Positions 166 through 52,345 of a DNA stretch of 64,000 nt are shown piece after piece. The DNA is from Clostridia bacterium (GTDB lineage: Bacteria; Bacillota; Clostridia; UMGS1840), in assembly GCA_017936745.1 (NCBI GenBank), contig JAGBEY010000016.1:192-64191 (forward strand). Direction: 5' to 3'. The translations under genes were made by a program, and so were the position numbers. The stretch's first letter is position 1, and the number at the start of each line of letters is the position of its first letter. The notes below the pieces were generated by a model, which saw nothing but the letters and a program-made list of their open reading frames with translations, searched no databases and was not told the DNA's origin.

Positions 166-2439
166 TTGTATGTCACAGAGGCGATAATCAACAGGAGGAA
201 GGTTCCATACACTTTATATGTTAATCCGGTTTGTAAGCTTACTGTCGACGGAGGAACTTATGGACTTAGAACGCGTATTGTTCAAGTGGGTATGGGTACC
301 GACGACAAGAGTTGCAATTATCGCGGTACTGTGATAGCTGACCGTGTGGGTACCATTGAAATCAACGGAGGTTCCTTCTGTGCCTATGACCTTGGCTTTG
401 ATTATGGAATGCCGGGAGATGAATGGGGAACTTACGGTGTCAGTGACAGAGAGCTTACAGCTTTCGGCACTTGCTGTTACAATGGTAGCGCCACGGTTGG
501 TGTAAGTCCTATGAATCTTACCATCAACGGCGGTCTGTTTAATTCTTCAGGATATTCTATTCATCATTTTTTCAGCGCTTTGAGTGAGGCTTACGCCGGC
601 GAAGATGTGATTGAAAAGCTGACCTTCCCCACCATCAACGGCGGTGTGTTTGAAGGTGCAATCGGATATATCGGCAGAAGCGGGGTGGAATGTGCATTCG
701 GTAACCCGATTGCCGAGCTGAAAGAAAGAACACTTGACACAATGATCAGCGAAGACTCTTTTGTTCATATTACCATTGATGACGGCTACCATAACTATAT
801 TCTTAAGCCGGATAATGTAACTTTTGATGAAGCAAACTGCCATGACTTCTGGATGATGGTAATTGGAGAAAACTTAATTAACCTTGAAACAACACCGGCT
901 ACCGACGGACAAACAACATATCTTACCCGCAATACCAGTCAGATTGATCACTTCACAGTAACCTACACCATTCCCGACTATCTCGGCACCAGGATTTATA
1001 TTAATCCTTTTATTTACGTTTTTGAGGATAGGTATTCCGGATACGGGCAGGACTACGTGGAGGTCTACTATGGTAACTATCCCGACCTGACTGTTTCGGT
1101 CCAAGCGGGGATTGAGGTAATCAGCATTGATGACACCCGTTCGGGTATGACTTTCTATAACACCTATGAAATCACAGTCGAAGCGCCTAATCCACCGTCA
1201 ATTGTCACGCAGCCTGCCATGTGCAGAGTAGAACCGGGAGAATGGGCAGAAATGACGGTGAAGGCCAATCACGCCGAATCCTATCAGTGGTATATGATAG
1301 ATGATACCTTTGGGAAAATCCCCTTCGGAGATAATGTATTCACGTCCATGATTGACGGAATTGAAGGGTATCAGTCCGAAACCTTAAGAATTATGATGAA
1401 GGAGCCCTGCAAGATCAGTCTTTACTGTGTCATTACAGGCATAGACGGTACTGAAAAAAAGACATCGACAAGAAATATGTATTTCGGCGCTGCTCCGAGC
1501 GTTCGCGTCTTTAGCGGCGGAGAATATGAAGAGGGCGGCGATGCCACCTTTATCATCTGGGCAGACTACGCGGATCGACTCACCTGGATGGTAGTAGACA
1601 GAGGAAGCGGCAGTGCAAGCTTTTATAACCTCGAAGACTTTGCCGAAGAATCGGGATTCACCTACACAGAGACTCATCAGAAGATGCCTTCGGGAATTTA
1701 TAAAGCAACCGTTACCTTCCATAATGTCACCCAAGCAAGCGTAAATAAAATTTTTGTGGGCTATGAAATGAGCAACGCCATAGACACAACGGAATTCAAT
1801 CCGGAAAATGTGCTTCCGTTTACCCGAAAGGAAATCAGGCCCCAAATCACCAAGGAGCTGGAACCCGCAAGCTGCCTGGATGGCGACAGTCTGACATATA
1901 CCATTCAGGCAATGAATATGACAGATGCGGAATGGAGGTTCGAAAAGCCTGACGAGGACGGAATTGCGATAGCTTATGGCATAGATGAACTGCGTGAAGC
2001 ATTTCCGGAATCCTCGTTCATCCCGTCCTTTGAAACAGACAGCGAAACCGGCGAAAGCACGGCAACCCTTGTCATCGAAAAGGCAAGATATGAGATGTTT
2101 GATTACACCCTTTATGCCTATGCAAGTTCTTCCAGCGGAATCTATCTGGCAGGTTATGCACAGTTGGAAGTAATTCCTGTCAAGGATTTTGAAATTACCG
2201 ACTGTCAGAACTCCAGCAGCTATATCACCGTGTGCTGTCCCGAAGCGGGAGATTACACGCTGTATATTGCAGGCTACGATTCGTTTGGAAAATTGGAAGC
2301 TGTAGAGATTGCACCCTTGCATTTTACCAGAGGAAAAGCAAGCTACAACACACAAAAGCCATTGGCAGATTATCCAGATATCAGGGTAATGCTTTGGGAC
2401 AATCTTATCAGCCCGCTATGTTCTTTATATCAAAAATAA
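166..2439 (+). CDS. Large surface-protein-like ORF with no signal peptide and a TTG start in the track; possibly N-terminally truncated
   Basis: 757-aa ORF. The N-terminal part has recurring xINGGxF / VDGGTY motifs (beta-helix-like repeats), followed by Ig-like segments. There is no signal peptide and no convincing RBS. It begins 66 bp from the divergent polymerase gene. Confidence 0.5.
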   Translation: MYVTEAIINRRKVPYTLYVNPVCKLTVDGGTYGLRTRIVQVGMGTDDKSCNYRGTVIADRVGTIEINGGSFCAYDLGFDYGMPGDEWGTYGVSDRELTAFGTCCYNGSATVGVSPMNLTINGGLFNSSGYSIHHFFSALSEAYAGEDVIEKLTFPTINGGVFEGAIGYIGRSGVECAFGNPIAELKERTLDTMISEDSFVHITIDDGYHNYILKPDNVTFDEANCHDFWMMVIGENLINLETTPATDGQTTYLTRNTSQIDHFTVTYTIPDYLGTRIYINPFIYVFEDRYSGYGQDYVEVYYGNYPDLTVSVQAGIEVISIDDTRSGMTFYNTYEITVEAPNPPSIVTQPAMCRVEPGEWAEMTVKANHAESYQWYMIDDTFGKIPFGDNVFTSMIDGIEGYQSETLRIMMKEPCKISLYCVITGIDGTEKKTSTRNMYFGAAPSVRVFSGGEYEEGGDATFIIWADYADRLTWMVVDRGSGSASFYNLEDFAEESGFTYTETHQKMPSGIYKATVTFHNVTQASVNKIFVGYEMSNAIDTTEFNPENVLPFTRKEIRPQITKELEPASCLDGDSLTYTIQAMNMTDAEWRFEKPDEDGIAIAYGIDELREAFPESSFIPSFETDSETGESTATLVIEKARYEMFDYTLYAYASSSSGIYLAGYAQLEVIPVKDFEITDCQNSSSYITVCCPEAGDYTLYIAGYDSFGKLEAVEIAPLHFTRGKASYNTQKPLADYPDIRVMLWDNLISPLCSLYQK

Positions 2440-2443
2440 TCAG

Positions 2444-3952
2444 GTGATAATGATGAAAATGAAAAAAATTGTAACTGTTTTATTAAGCGTAGTCATGATA
2501 GCATCAATGATTCCTACAGCTGTTTTTGCGACAGATTATATCCAGTCTGTAGTTGTGCTTGGTATTGATGATCCTGTAGACGGTGCACCGTATGACCGTT
2601 TTGCAAGTCTGCCATCAAATGCTACATATACAATTTTCAGCCAGCCGGAATGGTATGACGAAACCGACGAAAGATTCCTGGAAGCAGGCGATTCTTTTGA
2701 AAGTGGACACAGTTACACAGTAAGTGTGTGGCTGGAACCGAATAACGGATATGAGTTTGCCTCTACTACTACAACAACAGATGTAAAGGCATCCATAAAT
2801 GGAAAAACTGCAGAAGCAGGAAAAGCTTATGAATATCAACGATGGGCAATGGTTGTTGTGTCTTATACATTCCCAGCGGTTGAGAAGGCAAAACCGGTTG
2901 GCAGAGTTGAAATAGAAATATCCAAACCAAAGGCAGGTGAAACTGTATCCTACGATGCAAAACTTACAGGTGAGGGCGTTAGACTCATGACTCGTATTCC
3001 TGACCTTAAAGATGTATATAAAAATGCTATTAACGGTATAGAATGGGATGACGAAACCGCAAATCATAATATGAAAAAGGGAGAAACCTTTACGGTCGGT
3101 CACGAATATGGACTCAGCGTATTTATTGAGCCTGAAGCCGGGTACAAGCTTGATAATACAAACAAGGATTATTCTGTCACCATAAACGGTTCAAATGCAT
3201 TACCTATTGACGGATTTGGAGAGGATCGTCGGGGATATTATATCAGTTATGATTGTATAGGTGAGATTGGTGCTGTAAATTTCAACATTGTCGAACCGGA
3301 AGTTGGCTCTACTCCGTTTTTTAAAGGCTATGCGGAAAATGGCAATGTGGATTGGGAGGTAACAGAACTTTCCTATTTTGATAAGAGTACGAGAGAACAT
3401 CTTGAAGCATACGATACATTTGAAGAAGGACACTATTACGAAATTTATTTCCGTATGCAGGCAAAAGACGGATATGATTTTACCAAAGATGAAAATGGTA
3501 ATTTTGACCAAAGCAAAATTACCATAAACGGACACACGCCAAGCGACTCAGGCTATTTCTCCAATGTGTGGAGAACAGGTTTTGTTAAAAGCTGTTATGG
3601 TCCGCTTAAAAAGAATAGCGAGAATCTTCCGCTCACCCTGCGCGATGATGAACTCGTTAATGATATAGTGCAATCTATCTATCTCTATGATCTTGAAAAA
3701 CCCAAAGTGGGAGCCACTCCGGATTATATTACGGTATGGTTTAGTGAATACTATTATCCTGTGATGTCATCTACAGAAGTTGAAAAATGGGGAGTTTGTT
3801 GGAAAAACGTAACTGCCGGAAAAGACCTTGCGGTTGAAGACTCTGTCTTTGAGGAAGGTAATGAGTATGAAGCTCATATCAGAGTTACAACCAACTATAA
3901 AATGAAATCAAACGGAATCAAGGCATGTTTAATTCTAAAAAGAAGGTGCTAA
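2444..3952 (+). CDS. Secreted repeat protein with four to five roughly 100-aa modules
   Basis: Signal peptide MKMKKIVTVLLSVVMIASMIPTAVFA. Recurring module pattern: P(V/K)xGATP ... W.DE ... FE.GH.Y ... GY.F. The likely true start is the ATG at 2450-2459, after AGGTGA. Confidence 0.6.
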   Translation: MIMMKMKKIVTVLLSVVMIASMIPTAVFATDYIQSVVVLGIDDPVDGAPYDRFASLPSNATYTIFSQPEWYDETDERFLEAGDSFESGHSYTVSVWLEPNNGYEFASTTTTTDVKASINGKTAEAGKAYEYQRWAMVVVSYTFPAVEKAKPVGRVEIEISKPKAGETVSYDAKLTGEGVRLMTRIPDLKDVYKNAINGIEWDDETANHNMKKGETFTVGHEYGLSVFIEPEAGYKLDNTNKDYSVTINGSNALPIDGFGEDRRGYYISYDCIGEIGAVNFNIVEPEVGSTPFFKGYAENGNVDWEVTELSYFDKSTREHLEAYDTFEEGHYYEIYFRMQAKDGYDFTKDENGNFDQSKITINGHTPSDSGYFSNVWRTGFVKSCYGPLKKNSENLPLTLRDDELVNDIVQSIYLYDLEKPKVGATPDYITVWFSEYYYPVMSSTEVEKWGVCWKNVTAGKDLAVEDSVFEEGNEYEAHIRVTTNYKMKSNGIKACLILKRRC

Positions 3953-4100
3953 AATGCAGAAAAATGAAATGAGAGCTGCCTTGCCCGGTATTTCTGTGCA
4001 GCGTAAAGGCGGAACAAGCACTACCACCTTTAGCCCCGATGCAAATTGCACCAGAGCACAGGTAGTAACATTCCTGTATAGATTTATCAACGCCGGGTGA
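3939..4100 (+). pseudogene. Out-of-frame SLH-like C-terminal fragment (remnant wall anchor)
   Basis: The open frame 3939-4100 reads ...GGTSTTTFSPDANCTRAQVVTFLYRFINAG*. TFSPD..TRAQ..TFLYR is the second half of an SLH-type motif. It is in a different frame from 2444-3952, and the two frames overlap at an A5 run (3937-3941). Confidence 0.35.
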
Positions 4101-4211
4101 ATGCGAACCAAAAAATTCTATATGAACGACTGCGGCTGTAAGAAGTGATAACGAAGCAATAGCTCAAATGAAAATCATCGAAACTGTTGTTGTTTTTTAG
4201 TGATACAACAA

Positions 4212-4244
4212 AACAGGCTGAATCCTACTCGGATTCAGCCTGTT
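4212..4244. terminator. Bidirectional stem-loop between convergent genes
   Basis: caggctgaatcc / ggattcagcctg is a 12-bp stem with loop tactc. It is flanked by an A-run and a T-run. Confidence 0.6.
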
Positions 4245-4252
4245 TTCATATA

Positions 4253-5224
4253 TTATTTCTTTTTCCGGTATCTGATACAACCCACAACTCCCAATACCGC
4301 AATCACGCCTACGGCAACTGACAGTGCGGGAATCCACAAGGAAGTGATTGGCGAAGTTTCTCCCGTATTTTTTGCATACAGTTCTTTTTGTACTCCATAC
4401 GGAAGAAACTCATACAAGGTTGCTAAATCCTCCCATTTCATGGTAAAATCGCAACCGGGGAGTCTTCCCATCATCTGATGGTAGTGATCCACCTCGCAAA
4501 ACCGAGATACCGAGGCGAAAGCTGTTTTGGAAAAGCCGTCATACAAGGTGTCCTGCCTGTGTGTTACTGTAATGTAAAGCATATCGTCTTCCCAATCCTC
4601 AGCTCCCATTCTTTTTAAAATGGTATTTTTCACGTCGGTAATCAACACATTGTCGGAAAACTTAAAAAAACGGTCTACATTGATATCATACTCCACACCG
4701 TTTAAGGAAATCGTGACTTTTTCAGCAATCTCACGACTGGTTTCCATATATTCACTTAAAGTGATTTTTCTTCCCACATTCACACGGGCAATTTCTGACA
4801 TTTCATATAAGCCTTCCTCTAAGTACGCTTGAATCCGTTCGGAAAATTCATCGGTAATCTGTAAGACGATTTCCCCATCTGTACGGCTTTTGACCTCATA
4901 GGCATAAACCACATCCCCGGGAAGAAAGCCAAAGAAATATTCTGCTCCCTTTTTAGGAGTATTTTTTGAAAAATAGCAGACCGGATAGGATTGCTCCACC
5001 TGAACCTCCACTTCCCCTTTAATTTTTAAAACAGGAAGCACAGTCACCTCTTTCACATCGGAACGATTTTCTTCTTTGGAGTCTGCAAAATCCACAAGCG
5101 TTCCGATAAAGACTTTCGCATCGTCTTCATAGCTAAAAGCTTCCGGAATATCTCCCGCCAATGCAGGCACACACAATGAAACAAGCATACAAATGATACC
5201 AAGTATTGAAATAATTTTTTTCAT
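4253..5224 (-). CDS. Hypothetical exported protein with a C-terminal membrane anchor
   Basis: N-terminal signal peptide MKKIISILGIICMLVSLCVPALAG. C-terminal TM helix WIPALSVAVGVIAVLGVVGCI followed by RYRKKK. Confidence 0.6.
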   Translation of the reverse strand: MKKIISILGIICMLVSLCVPALAGDIPEAFSYEDDAKVFIGTLVDFADSKEENRSDVKEVTVLPVLKIKGEVEVQVEQSYPVCYFSKNTPKKGAEYFFGFLPGDVVYAYEVKSRTDGEIVLQITDEFSERIQAYLEEGLYEMSEIARVNVGRKITLSEYMETSREIAEKVTISLNGVEYDINVDRFFKFSDNVLITDVKNTILKRMGAEDWEDDMLYITVTHRQDTLYDGFSKTAFASVSRFCEVDHYHQMMGRLPGCDFTMKWEDLATLYEFLPYGVQKELYAKNTGETSPITSLWIPALSVAVGVIAVLGVVGCIRYRKKK

Positions 5225-9807: not shown

Positions 9808-9972
9808 TGAAATATCAACTTCGTTGATATGAAATAATCCTGACGGATTATGAAATATTTTTCTTTCAGAAAAATGTGAAATAAAATTTGCCTTTTCATA
9901 TTGCGTAGCAATATTTCATACACGGAGTGTATTTCATAGCGAAGCTATTTCACTTGCCAAAGGCAAATTTCA
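9808..9972. repeat. Mirror iteron-hairpin array A (TGAAATA x4, then TATTTCA x4-5)
   Basis: TGAAATA occurs at 9808, 9830, 9851 and 9877. Its reverse complement TATTTCA occurs at 9912, 9930 and 9946, with degenerate copies at 9892 and 9966. Spacers are individual hairpins: 9812-9830 (loop TTC), 9834-9851 (TGAC), 9857-9875 (TTTCA), 9898-9914 (GTA), 9918-9932 (GGA), 9936-9948 (GAA) and 9954-9966 (AAA). Confidence 0.8.
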
Positions 9973-9975
9973 TTG

Positions 9976-10007
9976 AAAAAGCGACTTGTCGAAACAAGTC
10001 GCTTTTT
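9976..10007 (-). terminator. Terminator of tRNA-Thr (bidirectional hairpin)
   Basis: gcgacttgt-cgaa-acaagtcgc is flanked by A5 and T5. It sits directly 3' of the tRNA on the minus strand. Confidence 0.75.
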
Positions 10008-10008
10008 C

Positions 10009-10084
<76 letters not shown>

Positions 10085-25367: not shown

Positions 25368-26168
25368 TTATGCAGATAACCGAAGCAGAATATTATCGGC
25401 TATCATAGCTAAAAATTCCGAATTGGTGGGCTTTCCTCTGGAGGAAAGAACGGTGCATCCAAACACCTTGGCAATATTATCAGCATCGCCTCTGGTCCAC
25501 GCCACTTCAATGGCATGACGGATGGCACGTTCCACCCGGCTGGGCTTGGAATCAAATTCCTTGGCAGTCATCGGATATAGCTCTTTGGTTACACTGTGAA
25601 GCAGTTTTCTGTTTTCCAGCACCCGTAAAATTGCATAGCGGAGATATTCATAGCCTTTGATATGTGCCGGCATACCCAGCTCGTGAAAAATATTGGTAAC
25701 CATCTGCTCCAGCATAGGATTTTCCTTGGAGGTTGCAATATTGGCAATTTTACCATTCGTATTCAGCTCGTTGTTGAGCTTATTTTCTTGCTTTCCGCTT
25801 TCCGAAACTGCTTTAATCTGCAAAATGGTAGACGGGATATCAAAGGGCTTCATCACAAAATAATCGGCTCCCATTTCCACCACTAATTTTTCGATGGCGG
25901 GAATTTTAATATCCATCATAAACACGATGGTCATATCCTCCCGAAGCAGTGCTTCCTTTTGCATACTGTCTAACAGCCAGATGCCGTCACCGTTTGGCAT
26001 TGCAATATCGGTAAGCACAATGTCCGGCTGATGGGAACGGATTAACTCCAGTGCTTCCTTGCCCTCTTTCGCCTGATACACTTCGCCAAAGTAGCTGTCT
26101 GCAGCCAGGCAGGTTTCCAGTTCTTCCAATAAGGTTTCGTTATCTTCTATCACTATAATCTTTTTCAT
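25368..26168 (-). CDS. spo0A: Sporulation master response regulator Spo0A
   Basis: A receiver domain (DIVLTDIAMPNGDG) plus the diagnostic Spo0A C-terminal domain: PAHIKGYEYLRYAI, SRVERAIRHAIEVAWTRG and GKPTNSEFLAMIAD. Confidence 0.93.
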   Translation of the reverse strand: MKKIIVIEDNETLLEELETCLAADSYFGEVYQAKEGKEALELIRSHQPDIVLTDIAMPNGDGIWLLDSMQKEALLREDMTIVFMMDIKIPAIEKLVVEMGADYFVMKPFDIPSTILQIKAVSESGKQENKLNNELNTNGKIANIATSKENPMLEQMVTNIFHELGMPAHIKGYEYLRYAILRVLENRKLLHSVTKELYPMTAKEFDSKPSRVERAIRHAIEVAWTRGDADNIAKVFGCTVLSSRGKPTNSEFLAMIADNILLRLSA

Positions 26169-26355: not shown

Positions 26356-26379
26356 CACGACATTCTTCGACATCCGACA
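26356..26379 (-). promoter_or_regulatory. Cluster of three 0A-type boxes upstream of spo0A
   Basis: The plus strand reads cACGACAttcTTCGACAtcCGACA. There is one perfect TGTCGAA on the gene strand (26372-26366), flanked by TGTCGTG and TGTCGGA, about 190-210 bp upstream of the start codon. Confidence 0.55.
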
Positions 26380-26461
26380 AACACCAATAAAAACCACCAA
26401 AAAGCAACACAGAACGCTGTCAAAAAAAGGGAGAAAACGGGCGATTTTGTCCCGATTCGCA

Positions 26462-48178: not shown

Positions 48179-48358
48179 ATTCTTCTCCTTAGCGATGCTA
48201 ATTTCGGGTTTGCTTTTCCCGACACATTTTATGGTGATAAAAAATCGAATGAACGGTATATTCTTTTATTTATAATTTCTCCGGCTCTTCGAGCTACCTT
48301 CCTTTACAGAAGGGTGGCTTTTTAGTTTTTCAAAATTCGACCTTGCGACACATAAGGT

Positions 48359-48868
48359 TTAAATGCAACTTGCTTTGTCAATATAATCTTCCAAATTTTG
48401 ACTATACGGAAAGCATCGCATAAAAGAACTTACTAATTCTTTATCTTCGCTTAAAATCAAAGTCAATGAACTGTCCCAAGGCACAATTTCTATCTTTGAT
48501 AAAGGATGTTGAAGTGTTAGCGGTTTGTTCCAGAATCCTGTATATCCATTTGCATAAGGCAAATCATATTTTAAAATATCAGCTAATTCAACACTTTTAT
48601 CAAATCCTGACAACACAGCCCATATCCATTGAAAATCTTCCTGATTGACCATTTCAGTTAATTCTTCACCTGATAACCAACAATATTCTTTGTCTAATAA
48701 TTCTTTTATTTTTTGATTATTGGGATAACATTCACAATCTGTTATTAACCAGTTGTATTCTTTTTGCTTATTACCAATCGCATCAAATATTTTTTTCAAA
48801 TATGTATAATACTTTTCGCCTTTTTCGTTAATTGCTCCATAAACCACATAATCACTTCCTTTCGACAT
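48359..48868 (-). CDS. Orphan small cytoplasmic protein (cassette 1)
   Basis: The ORF reads MSKGSDYVVYGAINEKGEKYY...NWLITDCECYP...FQWIWAVLSGF... By analogy with cassette 2, the true start may be the GTG at 48847, 7 nt after AAAGGAAG. Confidence 0.55.
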   Translation of the reverse strand: MSKGSDYVVYGAINEKGEKYYTYLKKIFDAIGNKQKEYNWLITDCECYPNNQKIKELLDKEYCWLSGEELTEMVNQEDFQWIWAVLSGFDKSVELADILKYDLPYANGYTGFWNKPLTLQHPLSKIEIVPWDSSLTLILSEDKELVSSFMRCFPYSQNLEDYIDKASCI

Positions 48869-48899
48869 TTTTCGACATATCCATATAACTCGTGTCAAG
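48857..48899 (-). promoter_or_regulatory. Conserved 43-nt leader with two tandem perfect Spo0A boxes (cassette 1)
   Basis: The minus strand reads CTTGACACGAGTTATATGGATATGTCGAAAAATGTCGAAAGGA. TGTCGAA lies at 48877-48871 and 48867-48861 with a 10-bp register. The second box abuts the SD. Confidence 0.6.
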
Positions 48900-48946
48900 T
48901 CAGGAGAACGGCAAAGAATGGCACCTGCTATTCTTTCCTTTTATTC

Positions 48947-48984
48947 GGGATGTCGAGGACGCCATCCCCTACATTTCCCCTACA
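48947..48984. repeat. GC-rich hairpin plus CCCCTACA direct duplication (REP-like element)
   Basis: gggatg-tcgaggacgc-catccc (48947-48968), followed by cccctaca at 48966-48973 and 48977-48984. It is a GC-rich patch in an AT-rich spacer. Confidence 0.4.
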
Positions 48985-49105
48985 GCATTTTTCCTTAGAA
49001 CCCGCAAGAATACTGGATTTTCTCGCTCCAATAGTATATGTAAATGTAATAAATCGGCAAACTAATCTTTTAAATTATATAGACTTGACACAAGTAAAAT
49101 TTTAA

Positions 49106-49687
49106 TTACTTATATGAGTTTTCTATCTGTTTTGAATACTCCCATTTTATTATACGAATATTATATCTTTCCAAGGCTTCATCAGCAGTAAATGCACTAT
49201 AACCCTTTTTCCCTTCTGGAGTAATGTATAAATAGTCAATCATATTGTCTTCTTCCGGTAAACGATTAAAATAACTATCAGGATCATTCATATAATACTC
49301 AGCATGTCCTGGATAAGAGCACAATTCTAAAACCTGATTACCCCAATCCGTGAAATCATTTTCATTGCTTAAATCTTTTAGACTAATCATCTCTTTTCCT
49401 GTACTTTTTATATACAATTTCCATTTTCGTTCTTTGCTACCACTATTAGTCCATTCAATACCATCATATTCGCATATAACTACATCTTCAATGGTTTTTA
49501 TTTCACCATCAAGCTCATATGTTAAAACAAACGGAAATTCGCCGTATGTAATTTCTGGTTCTGGCGGATTAGGTGCAAAATATGTAAGCATCAAAAATGC
49601 ACCTGAAATAACAAATAGATAAAACAAAGCGATTAACACACAGGCTACCGCTCCAATAATACCCGTTATAACCAATGTTTTTTTCAT
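49106..49687 (-). CDS. Orphan small membrane-anchored protein (cassette 2)
   Basis: MKKTLVITGIIGAVACVLIALFYLFVISGAFLMLTYF (one or two TM helices), then a soluble domain. ATG follows AAAGGAG. Confidence 0.6.
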   Translation of the reverse strand: MKKTLVITGIIGAVACVLIALFYLFVISGAFLMLTYFAPNPPEPEITYGEFPFVLTYELDGEIKTIEDVVICEYDGIEWTNSGSKERKWKLYIKSTGKEMISLKDLSNENDFTDWGNQVLELCSYPGHAEYYMNDPDSYFNRLPEEDNMIDYLYITPEGKKGYSAFTADEALERYNIRIIKWEYSKQIENSYK

Positions 49688-49694
49688 ATTTTAC

Positions 49695-49737
49695 TCCTTT
49701 CGACATTATTCGACATATCCATATTACTCGTGTCAAG
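49695..49737 (-). promoter_or_regulatory. Conserved 43-nt leader with two tandem perfect Spo0A boxes (cassette 2)
   Basis: The minus strand reads CTTGACACGAGTAATATGGATATGTCGAATAATGTCGAAAGGA, 41/43 identical to 48857-48899. TGTCGAA lies at 49715-49709 and 49705-49699. Confidence 0.6.
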
Positions 49738-49755
49738 ACTGGATAAAAATTCAAT

Positions 49756-49793
49756 ATGATATAATGATTTCAACTCTTATGAAATCATTATAT
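49756..49793. promoter_or_regulatory. 14-bp-stem hairpin built from two copies of the ATATAATGATTTCA module; contains an extended -10 on each strand
   Basis: atataatgatttca (49759-49772), actctta, then tgaaatcattatat (49780-49793). The plus strand reads TGaTATAAT at 49757-49765. The minus strand reads TATATAAT at 49793-49786. Confidence 0.5.
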
Positions 49794-49824
49794 AATTAGG
49801 TGACAGAAAAGATGCACCTTGTTG

Positions 49825-49996
49825 TCGATATGCAAACTTCGTTTGCTCGATATTTTTGCTACCGCAAAATCGATATGTTTTCGCTATGCTCAAACTCGAT
49901 ATGATATGAATTCTTGTCGCGTTAGCGACATATCGAGTGCGACAGCACATATCGAGTCCGCAAGACATATCGAGAATTCGTCAGAATTCATATCGA
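49825..49996. repeat. Mirror iteron-hairpin array B (TCGATAT x4, then ATATCGA x4)
   Basis: TCGATAT occurs at 49825, 49847, 49870 and 49896. ATATCGA occurs at 49930, 49949, 49967 and 49990. Spacer hairpins: 49832-49846 (loop TTC), 49854-49869 (TACC), 49915-49930 (GTTA), 49937-49948 (GACA), 49956-49966 (weak) and 49974-49989 (GTCA). A further hairpin, aagc-ttc-gctt, lies at 50004-50014. Confidence 0.8.
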
Positions 49997-50020
49997 CGAT
50001 TTCAAGCTTCGCTTAAAATC

Positions 50021-50049
50021 ATTATATCATACCAAAATCAAAATAGCAA
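50021..50049 (-). promoter_or_regulatory. Strong sigma-A-type promoter firing leftward into array B
   Basis: The minus strand reads TTGCTA (50049-50044), a 17-nt spacer that ends in TGa, then TATAAT (50026-50021). TATAATGATTTT is identical to the -10 and discriminator of the gdhA promoter in this window. Confidence 0.65.
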
Positions 50050-50074
50050 TGTTTTTCCCGAAAATAACCATATA

Positions 50075-50108
50075 CAAAAAAACAGAGAGACGTGCTCTCT
50101 GTTTTTTT
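50075..50108. terminator. Terminator of the 50111-52345 SLH gene (bidirectional)
   Basis: aacagagag-acgtg-ctctctgtt is flanked by A7 and T7. Confidence 0.8.
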
Positions 50109-50110
50109 CG

Positions 50111-52345
50111 TTAATTCGGTTTTTTTACCGCAACCAGCACACGGATTCTTCCGCCTGCAGATTGCGATTTATCGTAATAAGCATGTATGGTGTAGCTGTC
50201 CTGCTGCTCCATCAAATCATCTTTTGCCATTTTTAAATACTGATAATCGGCATTTTTCTGATACACCACAACTCTGTCACTCATCAGATATTCGGTATCG
50301 TTGCACACAACACTAAAGTCGTTAATCTGGCTGACCGGGCTACTGATTTTAAACAGTGATGTAATACTGTCAATGGTGTTTCCCGAAAATACAAACCGCG
50401 CAGGAGCTCCGGTGGACACCGAGGTGAAAATAGAGCCGTTCATGGTGGTGGTATTGCCGTCAATATCGTAGGTGTAGGTTCTCATATTGGAGCGCTCGTT
50501 ATATTCGGAGGCATAGGTGACAATGCCGTATTTATGGGCGTCTCCCGTTACATTATGCAAAAAGAGAGTATCAATTTCTCCGGCTTGGTTTTTTTCCGAA
50601 TATAGCACCGAGGAGGCAGACAGGTTCATTCCATCAAGACGCTGGGGATAGATTTTTACATAACTGCCGGTTTCCAGTTTGTCAATTGTGGAGACATCCA
50701 AAATGGAAACCTCCTCTGCCAGCCGGTGGTTTCCGATGGTTTTTGTGTCATAATCAACTGTTCCGCTGACAGAAGAAGCTGTATTCAAGGTGTTCAGCTT
50801 TACTTTCTGATTTTGAAAAGAAAGTTTTACAATTTTATTCTTGCTTGCAGAATAATCAGAAGATGTGGGATATTCCAACACTTCTCCGGATGCAGTAACA
50901 AGGGAAATATAATTGGAGGAATATTCACTGCCGTCTCCGTTTTGGAAGGTTTTCTTTCCCGTTGCCTGAAGATATCCCACAACAGAATCAGGAGTGCCGC
51001 TGAGGACATCCGCAATTTTTCCGTCTCTGCCTAAAAGCACAGTCACCGAATCACCCAGCTTCACAGTTCCTTTAGAGGAAAGCTTATAAAAGGCTTCTGC
51101 CCCCTCCAATGCATAGGTCGTGCCGGAAATCACTACCGAAGTGGGATTATCCCGATTGGGGGATGCACTTTCGTACACACCGGATACCTTTTTGGAATAT
51201 GCCCAAACGGTATTGAGCTTTTCGGAATAGTATAAAATATCATTGAGTTCATATCCGGTTGCCTGAGAACCGTTTCGGATAAAGGTGGTGTTTTCGTCTG
51301 TCTGTACCACTGTTTTTGAGGTAGCGGTAACCGGACCTTTTAACAAGTCGGTGGAAAGCACACCGTAATCGGTAACCATATCCATGGTTTTATAAATTTT
51401 CAAGGTATCGCCGATAGAAATACTTGCCAGAGAGTTTTTCAGACTGGTGGTTTGAGATTTGTTATATACCGTCAGATTTTTGTCAACAGAAAGGGATTTC
51501 AGCGTTCCGTTTTGCGAAACAACAATATCATCATCCAAAACCTGATAAACCAGATATTCTTCAACATATTGATTGGAGGGAATAAAGCCTACTGCCTCAT
51601 TGGCATTTTTTAAAATCAAATCTCCTTTTTTTCCAACAGCATCTTCCAGTGTAAGTGAAGTTCTGTAATTGCCGGAGGTGGTGTTGACTCTGCCGCTTCC
51701 CACCGAGGTATCCGTAAGCGGTGTACCGAGAATAATCACATCCTCCAGAATTTTATAGTTCAGAGTTTCAATATAATGAGCAGTGCTGTTTTTTGGTTCC
51801 GTATTCAAAAGGTTATAGGTAAGATACGCCACATCACGACGGGTCATCAACTCACCGATGGATTTCTCCAATCCTTCCGTTAAGCCGCAATTGATTGCCA
51901 GTCCAACCTGACCGTAGGGCCAGGAGCTTCCGAAATCGGTATCATCATACCCTAAAAGCTTTAAGAATACATTCAGTGCTTCCTCATAGAGCACAGTGTT
52001 GTCCGGCTGAAAGGAGCTGTCCGGATATCCTGTTACCAGCTTATGGTCACTGGCTAACTTGATATAAGGTGACGCCCAATGCTGATGGGTCACATCCTTA
52101 AATGGTGATATTTTCAAATTCAGTGCCACTGTATTTTTATGTTTGGAGGCAGTAATGGCAATTTTTGCAAACTCTGCACGGGAAACATAATCGTCCAGAC
52201 GAAGATTGCCGTCGGTGTCTCCCTGCATAATTTTCATTTCTCCCAGAAGCGGAAGAATGTTGGTTTGTAATTCCTCTGCAGATACGGGCAAGGTAACCAG
52301 TAGGGCACAGAGTAATAATAGAATTATTTTTTTCATTGGTTTCAA
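50111..52345 (-). CDS. Large SLH-domain surface protein (N-terminal SLH repeats)
   Basis: Signal peptide MKKIILLLLCALLVTLPVSA. SLH repeats read DDYVSRAEFAKIAI... and FKDVTHQHWASPYIKLASDHKLVTGYPDSSFQPDN. A long beta-rich C-terminal region follows. Confidence 0.8.
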   Translation of the reverse strand: MKPMKKIILLLLCALLVTLPVSAEELQTNILPLLGEMKIMQGDTDGNLRLDDYVSRAEFAKIAITASKHKNTVALNLKISPFKDVTHQHWASPYIKLASDHKLVTGYPDSSFQPDNTVLYEEALNVFLKLLGYDDTDFGSSWPYGQVGLAINCGLTEGLEKSIGELMTRRDVAYLTYNLLNTEPKNSTAHYIETLNYKILEDVIILGTPLTDTSVGSGRVNTTSGNYRTSLTLEDAVGKKGDLILKNANEAVGFIPSNQYVEEYLVYQVLDDDIVVSQNGTLKSLSVDKNLTVYNKSQTTSLKNSLASISIGDTLKIYKTMDMVTDYGVLSTDLLKGPVTATSKTVVQTDENTTFIRNGSQATGYELNDILYYSEKLNTVWAYSKKVSGVYESASPNRDNPTSVVISGTTYALEGAEAFYKLSSKGTVKLGDSVTVLLGRDGKIADVLSGTPDSVVGYLQATGKKTFQNGDGSEYSSNYISLVTASGEVLEYPTSSDYSASKNKIVKLSFQNQKVKLNTLNTASSVSGTVDYDTKTIGNHRLAEEVSILDVSTIDKLETGSYVKIYPQRLDGMNLSASSVLYSEKNQAGEIDTLFLHNVTGDAHKYGIVTYASEYNERSNMRTYTYDIDGNTTTMNGSIFTSVSTGAPARFVFSGNTIDSITSLFKISSPVSQINDFSVVCNDTEYLMSDRVVVYQKNADYQYLKMAKDDLMEQQDSYTIHAYYDKSQSAGGRIRVLVAVKKPN

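Follow-up and report, generated by a model that had tools for sequence, protein, structure and literature searches.

Two small genes behind a shared leader

The 64,000-nt stretch of a Clostridia bacterium contig analysed here (JAGBEY010000016.1; hereafter the window) contains two small genes, each headed by a copy of the same 43-nt leader, in which two direct copies of TGTCGAA, the core of the binding site (0A box) of the sporulation regulator Spo0A, run straight into the Shine-Dalgarno sequence (SD). The leaders, both genes, a repeat array called array B, and the gene for Spo0A all lie inside the window. Gene 1 (48359..48847, minus strand) encodes a cytoplasmic protein of 162 aa that belongs to the DUF2691 family, and gene 2 (49106..49687, minus strand) encodes 193 aa with a hydrophobic N-terminus, which is a membrane anchor. 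A first-pass annotation of this DNA had called the two proteins unrelated, and a BLASTP comparison agrees (E=8.2). The same annotation placed the start of gene 1 at the ATG at 48868, which falls inside the second box of the leader. The GTG at 48847 is the most likely start: homologs have MVYGA... as their first residues, and 162 aa is the length that most gene calls for this contig report. The pair was also described as adjoining array B, and this repeat array (49800-50012) is indeed directly upstream of the leader of gene 2.

Written as a degenerate pattern, the 43-mer has two exact matches in the window, both on the minus strand (48857-48899 and 49695-49737), and 0 in 100 shuffles. The two copies are identical at 41/43 positions, as first reported; the differences are T/A in a 10-nt spacer and A/T in the 3-nt spacer, with none in the boxes. 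The similarity reaches 52 nt at 90% (48857-48908 versus 49695-49746), and at the other end the leaders are alike as far as AAAGGA and divergent immediately after.

Read 5' to 3' on the minus strand, leader 1 (48857..48908) consists of TTCTCCT and a right-hand inverted repeat (IR) GACTTGACACGAGT at 48901-48888, the spacer TATATGGATA (48887-48878), box 1 (48877-48871), AAA, box 2 (48867-48861) and the SD AGGAAG (48860-48855), followed by the GTG at 48847. Leader 2 (49695..49746, also minus) consists of TTATCCAGT and the IR core CTTGACACGAGT (49737-49726), the spacer AATATGGATA (49725-49716), box 1 (49715-49709), TAA, box 2 (49705-49699) and the SD AGGAG (49698-49694), followed by the ATG at 49687. 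All four boxes read TGTCGAA. The coordinates thus confirm two direct boxes per leader with starts 10 bp apart, and also the claim that the downstream box abuts the SD, since AGGA(G/A) follows box 2 at once in both leaders. As a single word TGTCGAA is not enriched (8 in the window versus 8.1 expected); the non-random part is its tandem arrangement together with the context.

A family of leaders in gut Clostridia

Relatives of the leader were collected in two ways. The first scan went through a single genome of each species and demanded the IR core and both boxes, so that perfect tandems were selected. It returned 12 loci in different metagenome-assembled genomes (MAGs), classified as Oscillospiraceae, 'Clostridia bacterium' or Congzhengia, with a different small open reading frame (ORF) downstream each time. 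An nhmmer profile built from the copies at these 12 loci and run over the same loci revealed many further copies, often several per locus and in one orientation. The second scan, of metagenome contigs, was anchored only on the upstream TTCACTGTTCNCCNGNCTTGACAC with the boxes left free, and gave 24 copies, 22 of them readable. In the fetched loci, which total 284 kb and are labelled L with a number below, tandem sites were counted at no more than 2 mismatches in the 14 box positions. There are 56 such sites, the one upstream of spo0A included, against about 1-3 that we estimate would arise by chance. Nearly all have the same orientation and stand just upstream of a small ORF, mostly with a recognisable SD nearby. 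Further copies of the 43-mer, for which the first-pass annotation had advised a search, therefore exist by the dozen in other genomes, ahead of unrelated genes.

The 43-mer is, by alignment, a composite of an IR terminus, a variable 10-nt spacer, two boxes and the SD. Its opening 12 nt (CTTGACACGAGT) are the right-hand inverted repeat of a separate conserved element, seen in an alignment (A1) of five full inter-cassette regions from four genomes. The earlier description of a portable Spo0A leader holds in that the leader heads cassettes in many genomes, but the first third of the sequence is the terminal inverted repeat (TIR) of this inter-cassette element. The unit closed by the IR also differs between the two window copies: it is the inter-cassette element before leader 1 and the non-coding word array B before leader 2. 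In the family, the boxes follow three different upstream modules, namely GACTTGACACGAGT, TTGCATCTAAACCTTATGTGTCGCAATA (type ii-a) or GGCATCTAGATTATACAGTCTTTATA (type ii-b), and the IR is also found without boxes, arguing that the boxes and SD are a module of their own. We lean towards the view that two modules of a cassette system, present in gut Oscillospiraceae-type Clostridia, meet in the 43-mer.

Spo0A as the predicted regulator

The protein predicted to bind the boxes is encoded by spo0A (25368..26168, minus strand, 266 aa), 23 kb from the leaders. It matches TIGR02875 at E=1.1e-75 (254 bits versus a cut-off of 200), and an identical protein (MBP3448581.1) carries the name Spo0A at NCBI. 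The C-terminal DNA-binding domain aligns with the B. subtilis domain on DNA (1LQ1, E=7e-38), and the recognition helix SRVERAIRHAIEVAW is identical. Upstream of spo0A itself, at 26356..26386 on the minus strand, lie the 0A boxes TGTCGGA/TGTCGAA-gaa-TGTCGTG, in which TGTCGGA abuts TGTCGAA. They stand ~45-70 nt upstream of a TTGATT-N17-TATATT promoter in the same 10-bp register as the leaders, and form a weaker tandem than those of the leaders.

The TGTCGAA core of the 0A box is contacted at G2, C4 and G5; a clostridial Spo0A shares this specificity, and binding is predicted by a consensus box (PMC3485338). At the A2c promoters of phages Nf and phi29, two boxes 3 bp apart (the spacing given for site 0A-1) mediate repression and give a footprint of 25-30 bp (PMC2731898). 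The two window leaders contain four exact cores, and the 7+3+7 layout is found in both and in the 56 sites. The earlier claim of perfect tandem 0A boxes is thus borne out for the core and for the A2c layout, but a perfect tandem is exceptional in the family at large (see below). Variants of box 2 in the family include TGGCGAA (four times) and TGACGAA (twice), which vary at the free position of TGNCGAA, and between the orthologous gene-1 leaders of the window and L014, 7/13 spacer positions differ and 0/14 box positions do. We consider it very likely that Spo0A binds the two perfect window sites in vitro. Physiological regulation of the cassettes by Spo0A is a more guarded prediction, which we hold to be somewhat probable, and the sign of the effect, whose direction is read from the position of the boxes, is put lower still.

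That position is best seen in the family. In at least a quarter of the sites, box 1 is preceded by a -10-like hexamer (TATAAA, TATAAG or TATAGT) whose first base lies 9-11 nt ahead of it, with a peak at 9 nt (13/52 sites at 5/6 or better). In type ii-b, TTGGCA-N18-TATAGT precedes the boxes, which would place them over the predicted start site. Copies without boxes often have a canonical -10 sequence 17-18 nt after the TTGACA of the IR (as in L017 and at L015 1375, TTGACA-N17-TATAAT), and in copies with boxes, box 1 takes that -10 position. The window offers three promoter candidates: TTGCCG-TATACT inside the inter-cassette element for gene 1, a strong TTGCTA-N17-TATAAT (50049-50021) for gene 2, and a weak TTGACA-N17-TCGAAT. 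Relative to these predicted promoters, the boxes coincide with the core promoter or follow it closely, and the ribosome-binding site (RBS) comes right after them; this is the position of a repressor site and not of an activator site. A role of the leader as a promoter for sigma-H, an extracytoplasmic function (ECF) sigma factor, a SigI-like factor or a sporulation sigma factor was considered by eye and rejected, with no consistent -35/-10 pair found.

A repression model is preferred because the boxes sit at or after the core promoter and before the RBS in every reading. In this model, the cassette head would comprise the variable 10 nt, two direct 0A boxes and an SD fused to box 2, placed before unrelated small genes. 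A head-to-tail dimer of Spo0A~P would occupy the two boxes and block initiation or elongation, by occlusion or as a roadblock, as at abrB, where boxes downstream of the promoter form a roadblock (PMC12090719), and at A2c of phi29 and Nf. Growing cells would then express the cassettes, and rising Spo0A~P would silence them.

Several results weigh against such a function. In the metagenome sample, which was not selected for boxes, box 1 is exact in 9/22 copies, has one mismatch in 6/22 and is absent together with box 2 in 7/22, and no copy has two exact boxes (0/22). When measured in copies chosen for box 1 alone, box 2 keeps T1, G2, A6 and A7, while C4, a Spo0A contact, is almost random (0.07 bits). 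This degeneracy is compatible with neutral decay of a repeat as well as with graded or decaying operators. The window leaders themselves have weak -10-like sequences (TAATAT/TATATG) with no -35 at the proper distance, and in TTGACA-N17-TCGAAT the key A at -11 is missing.

The alternative that fares best is that the leaders are a repeat family without regulatory meaning, similar to a miniature inverted-repeat transposable element (MITE) or a recombination scar, which spreads and decays and in which the 0A match is coincidental or disused. Besides the mostly degenerate box 2 and the 7/22 copies without boxes, modules are found stacked without cargo at L045 4790-4925. In addition, the two window leaders are near-closest relatives of each other, and because their spacers are nearly the same, they are probably products of recent conversion within this genome. 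Of the features expected of a MITE, TIRs are present; no duplication is visible at the element ends, and copies were seen only inside arrays of the fetched loci. Against a meaningless repeat, box 1 is at or near the consensus in 15/22 unselected copies, and the boxes keep a constant orientation and position relative to the SD behind three unrelated modules. The sparing of the boxes between orthologs and the variation at position 3, which mirrors TGNCGAA, also argue against it, as does a host that has Spo0A and the same register at the promoter of its own spo0A gene. We judge this alternative unlikely, though it deserves to be taken seriously.

The boxes could also serve a different DNA-binding protein, either another response regulator or one encoded by a cassette. 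Direct repeats about one helical turn apart are typical of response regulators generally, so the 10-bp spacing fits this idea too, and the tolerance of box 2 for change at C4 would be easier to understand. However, the core equals the 0A consensus at 7/7 positions, the 3-bp spacing is that of the footprinted Spo0A sites (PMC2731898), and no candidate regulator gene recurs in the arrays. Another regulator is therefore improbable, and Spo0A remains the preferred ligand.

The inter-cassette element and its modules

The inter-cassette element is ~200-220 nt long, conserved across the A1 regions, and has inverted repeats at both ends. Its left IR (ACTCGTGTCAAGTC) is right behind the stop codon of the preceding gene, and its right IR is the 14-bp GACTTGACACGAGT. 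In the window, the left IR is at 49082..49095 (GACTTGACACAAGT on the plus strand), just after the stop codon of gene 2, and the element body (48902..49081, minus strand) is covered by the five A1 copies. Within the body, and on the same strand, are the promoter-like TTGCCG (49060-49055) N16 TATACT (49038-49033), a hairpin GCGAGAA..TTCTTGC (49026-49004), TGTAGGGG with a GGGATG..CATCCC hairpin (48984-48947), and a hairpin AAAGAATAGCA..TGCCATTCTTT (48936-48913). An A-rich variable stretch lies between the first hairpin and the last. The TGTAGGGG sequence and its G+C-rich hairpin are found in some copies of the element (window 48947-48984; L005 ~800; L007 ~2300) and are absent from others, and appear to be an insertion within the element.

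The layout of this element raises the possibility that the 14-bp IRs around a promoter-bearing segment of ~190 bp are invertase sites that switch gene 1, with the 43-mer kept as a recombination site. Known invertons resemble the inter-cassette element in size and layout: IRs of 14-20 bp flank the promoter-like TTGCCG-N16-TATACT, which is directed at the gene, and each IR has internal dyad symmetry. Every full element seen is in the same 'on' orientation, however, and the fetched loci contain no inverted junction. None turned up in a scan of metagenome contigs either, where the normal junction does occur; this control is weak, since few normal copies match an equally strict pattern. Many leaders, leader 2 included, have a single IR, and annotation of parts of the window and arrays revealed no invertase. 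An inverton is accordingly quite improbable. The dyad symmetry is most complete in a solo copy of the repeat at L008 4676-4697, a perfect 21-nt palindrome (CCTGACTTGACACAAGTCAGG), and because of this copy the ancestral repeat site is suggested to have had dyad symmetry, as a protein-binding or recombination site would.

Control at the RNA level, by folding of the leader (UUCUCCU with the AGGAG SD, or an IR hairpin) or by an RNA-binding protein that governs translation, is very improbable. The TTCTCCT upstream of the IR is complementary to the SD, and GACUUGACACGAGUC could form a 6-bp hairpin. Against this, leader-1 RNA taken from the putative start folds no better than shuffles (z=-1.27), and in the common GAAC variant of the IR the hairpin is disrupted with no compensating change. 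The pairing of TTCTCCT with AGGAG was dropped, as the anti-SD-like stretch and the SD show no covariation across copies. Rfam matched nothing on the leader, the element or array B, in the window at gathering thresholds or in 48200-50150 at permissive thresholds. The strict 10-nt register also points to one face of duplex DNA. Finally, the first-pass annotation had named as a case that would refute its proposal a 5' gene end duplicated only locally and present nowhere else. The 41/43 identity of the window copies would suit this reading, but the dozens of copies before unrelated genes in other genomes practically rule it out.

The boundary at the far end of the gene-1 cassette is formed by a type ii-a module (48326..48368, minus strand), whose TTGCATTTAAACCTTATGTGTCGCAA (48368-48343) extends over the stop codon of gene 1. 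Behind it, still within 48326-48368, comes a decayed box pair, GGTCGAA-ttt-TGAAAAA. The two-cassette array has its distal end here, and the region resembles an eroded third junction between cassettes. In the stack at L045 4790-4925, modules i, ii-a and ii-b are followed by a single box pair, an arrangement that resembles empty cassette junctions left by deletions. Another variation is an insert of ~60-125 nt that starts with GCCTCCCCTGTGTAAGGGGAGGTGGG and lies between boxes and cargo (L009 4990-5110; L016 60-115; L018 ~5520; L045 1378-1440). In L016 and L018 it continues into an ORF starting MDRKHN...AKELRK, which we take to be DUF559-like, and in L009 it resembles a remnant ahead of a DUF2691 gene.

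Probable exchange of cassettes between genomes

The gene-1 cassette of the window (48905-48343) corresponds to L014 2936-3498, in another MAG, at 91.7% nucleotide identity. The homology starts at CCTGAC|TTGACAC and stops in the ii-a module over the gene 1 stop codon (48368-48343). The flanks are unrelated, those in L014 being a word array and an RNase J-like gene. The same cargo is also present in L009 and L045 at 88-89% identity. A second example is a Phd-Doc cassette common to L013 and L045 (84% over 751 nt), which has different upstream modules in the two loci and in which the homology starts just before the -10-like hexamer and box 1.

Junction positions therefore vary, being after the SD in the window pair and before box 1 in the Phd-Doc pair. 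Because they differ between pairs, we infer homology-driven exchange and gene conversion at short conserved modules, not crossover at one fixed, site-specific position. As homology handles, the modules would allow both the exchange of cassettes between genomes and the homogenisation of leaders inside one genome. In a check that was not exhaustive, the arrays of L009, L013 and L022 and the annotated parts of the window showed no recombinase gene. Viral contigs, phage records and plasmid records contained no copy of the leader or element. A comparison of cassette gain and loss was attempted via relatives of glnA, and the loci retrieved were not syntenic.

Cargo of the cassettes

The DUF2691 family of gene 1 has more than 960 homolog clusters in mixed genomic contexts, and the protein gives a confident structure model with no fold match. 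Gene 2 has 51 homolog clusters and no assigned Pfam family. The context of its homologs is informative. In L041, a gene-2 homolog (4001-4549) directly follows a gene for a 910-aa RHS-repeat protein (1268-4000) with a C-terminal PF26363 phospholipase-like domain, and in L040 another (3068-3634) directly follows a 254-aa PF26363/Mbeg1-like fragment (2293-3057) in an RHS context. There is no leader at either place. An orphan homolog in L039 (56% identity) has the leader variant TGTCGAA-ttt-TGGCGAA-AGGAG. Because homologs follow Rhs/PF26363 toxins, and from its position and topology, gene 2 is a putative orphan immunity gene against a secreted phospholipase-type toxin, an assignment by guilt by association.

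The arrays of L009, L013, L022 and L045 carry small co-oriented genes, many of them orphans with signal peptides or membrane anchors. Among the cargo are DMP19-like, DKNYY and DUF2691 proteins, a Phd/Doc (Fic/Doc plus Phd) pair, and a candidate defence protein of the PDC-S14 family. The last is a GIY-YIG/DUF4357 protein in the cassette at L022 4686-5588, which matches the PADLOC candidate defence family at E=1e-106; because of this match, the arrays appear to hold anti-phage-type as well as immunity-type cargo. The first-pass annotation had suggested including immunity and toxin families in the homology searches, and this proved apt, with gene-2 homologs abutting RHS and PF26363 and with DMP19, DKNYY and Phd-Doc elsewhere. 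At least some cassette genes are probably stand-alone immunity genes against contact-dependent toxins.

Relation to known systems

The predicted operator would work like the tandem 0A sites of abrB and of A2c in phi29 and Nf, with which it agrees in every sequence-level feature compared, the TGTCGAA core among them. The predicted location of the boxes, at the core promoter or downstream of it, is also one from which Spo0A~P represses at those sites (PMC2731898; PMC12090719). With A2c the predicted operator also shares two direct boxes 3 bp apart (PMC2731898). The phage sites lie on a mobile element that senses entry of the host into sporulation. Unlike these cases, the leader pair is fused to the SD, is portable before many unrelated small genes, and comes from uncultured Oscillospiraceae-type Clostridia, where it is a predicted operator.

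In the rAID-1 islands of Bacteroidales, too, orphan immunity genes form co-oriented arrays; the sequence between them is repetitive and reminiscent of integrons, and there are signs that they were acquired horizontally (bioRxiv 10.1101/471110). The leader arrays share with them at least 2 co-oriented orphan immunity-type genes with repetitive intergenic sequence. In contrast, the definition of rAID-1 asks for a XerD-like recombinase at the 5' end, with more than 44% identity to BF9343_RS08045, and for a Bacteroidales host (bioRxiv 10.1101/471110); no recombinase was seen next to the leader arrays, and the hosts are Oscillospiraceae/Clostridia. The repeats are also unlike, and the leader cassettes include a head with promoter, operator and RBS. 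The likeness to integron cassettes is similar in kind. Those too are small, mostly orphan and co-oriented, with imperfect-IR elements between them, and the same cassette occurs in different arrays. Differences are that no IntI was seen (in the arrays and annotated parts of the window, again not exhaustively), that the leader cassettes are not promoterless, that the junctions are variable, and that the IRs are GACTTGACACGAGT with no GTTRRRY core of the attC type. From these features the cassette system is not a member of either rAID-1 or the integrons.

Two further comparisons are relevant. Orphan immunity and toxin modules that lie downstream of Rhs, WapA and LXG loci in Firmicutes also contain stand-alone immunity genes related to toxin-linked ones, whereas the leader cassettes are not beside a toxin locus and each has its own conserved leader. 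A precedent for timing by a global response regulator is DegS-DegU of B. subtilis, which times expression of a toxin-immunity operon (PMC8321402). The RecV switches of C. difficile and the Mpi promoters of B. fragilis have short IRs around a promoter segment of ~200 bp before a surface or competition gene, as here; the inter-cassette element differs in that it is seen in one orientation and that many copies have a single IR.

Orphan-immunity islands shape strain competition among gut Bacteroidales. To our knowledge, no counterpart with a conserved expression module has been described among the spore-forming Clostridia that abound in the gut. Should the boxes function as predicted, a defence repertoire that is exchanged horizontally would be coupled to the master regulator of sporulation through a plug-in operator, the strategy by which phage phi29 senses sporulation of its host. 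The signature of IR, TGTCGAA-N3-TGNCGAA and SD could be used to mine metagenomes for cassettes and uncharacterised immunity candidates, and the leaders provide a testable set of predicted Spo0A targets in organisms that lack a known regulon.

A bolder proposal, which we regard as doubtful, is that gut Oscillospiraceae have their own integron-/rAID-like platform that collects orphan immunity and defence genes, with a Spo0A operator and RBS on every cassette. Its parts would be a head, made of a strong promoter and an iteron-like word array in which the word differs and the palindromic layout is kept, and boundary modules, made of the GACTTGACACGAGT IR and the ii-a/ii-b hairpins. If this were true, the whole acquired defence repertoire would be wired to the sporulation decision, and the many high-affinity sites might titrate Spo0A~P.

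The array head and other features of the window

The array head of the window (49755..50049, minus strand) begins with the sigma-70-like TTGCTA-N17-TATAAT at 50049-50021 and has 19-nt IRs at 50031-50013 and 49773-49755. Array B, between them, contains TCGATAT at 49825, 49847, 49870 and 49896 and ATATCGA at 49930, 49949, 49967 and 49990. The words are 18-26 nt apart, with small hairpins between them, and array B as RNA folds far better than shuffles (z=-6.45). A strong promoter, then a word array of ~200 nt, a leader and the first cassette is a recurring order, seen also in L012, L014, L015 and L045. In each word array an 8-mer is repeated four or five times one way and then the other way; the word is CTCGATATG/CATATCGAG in the window and AGCTAAAT/ATTTAGCT in those four loci. 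L012 has no 0A boxes between the word array and the first gene, and the word array of L045 lies between two direct ii-a modules, in the manner of a non-coding cassette. Array B may consist of iteron- or centromere-like protein sites, or may be a structured RNA.

Elsewhere in the window, 9908-9975 and 10012-10084 (both on the minus strand) hold a Gut-1 RNA (RF01706, 56.4 bits versus a gathering score of 50) beside a tRNA gene. A lone TGTCGAA (9987-9993) lies between the two.

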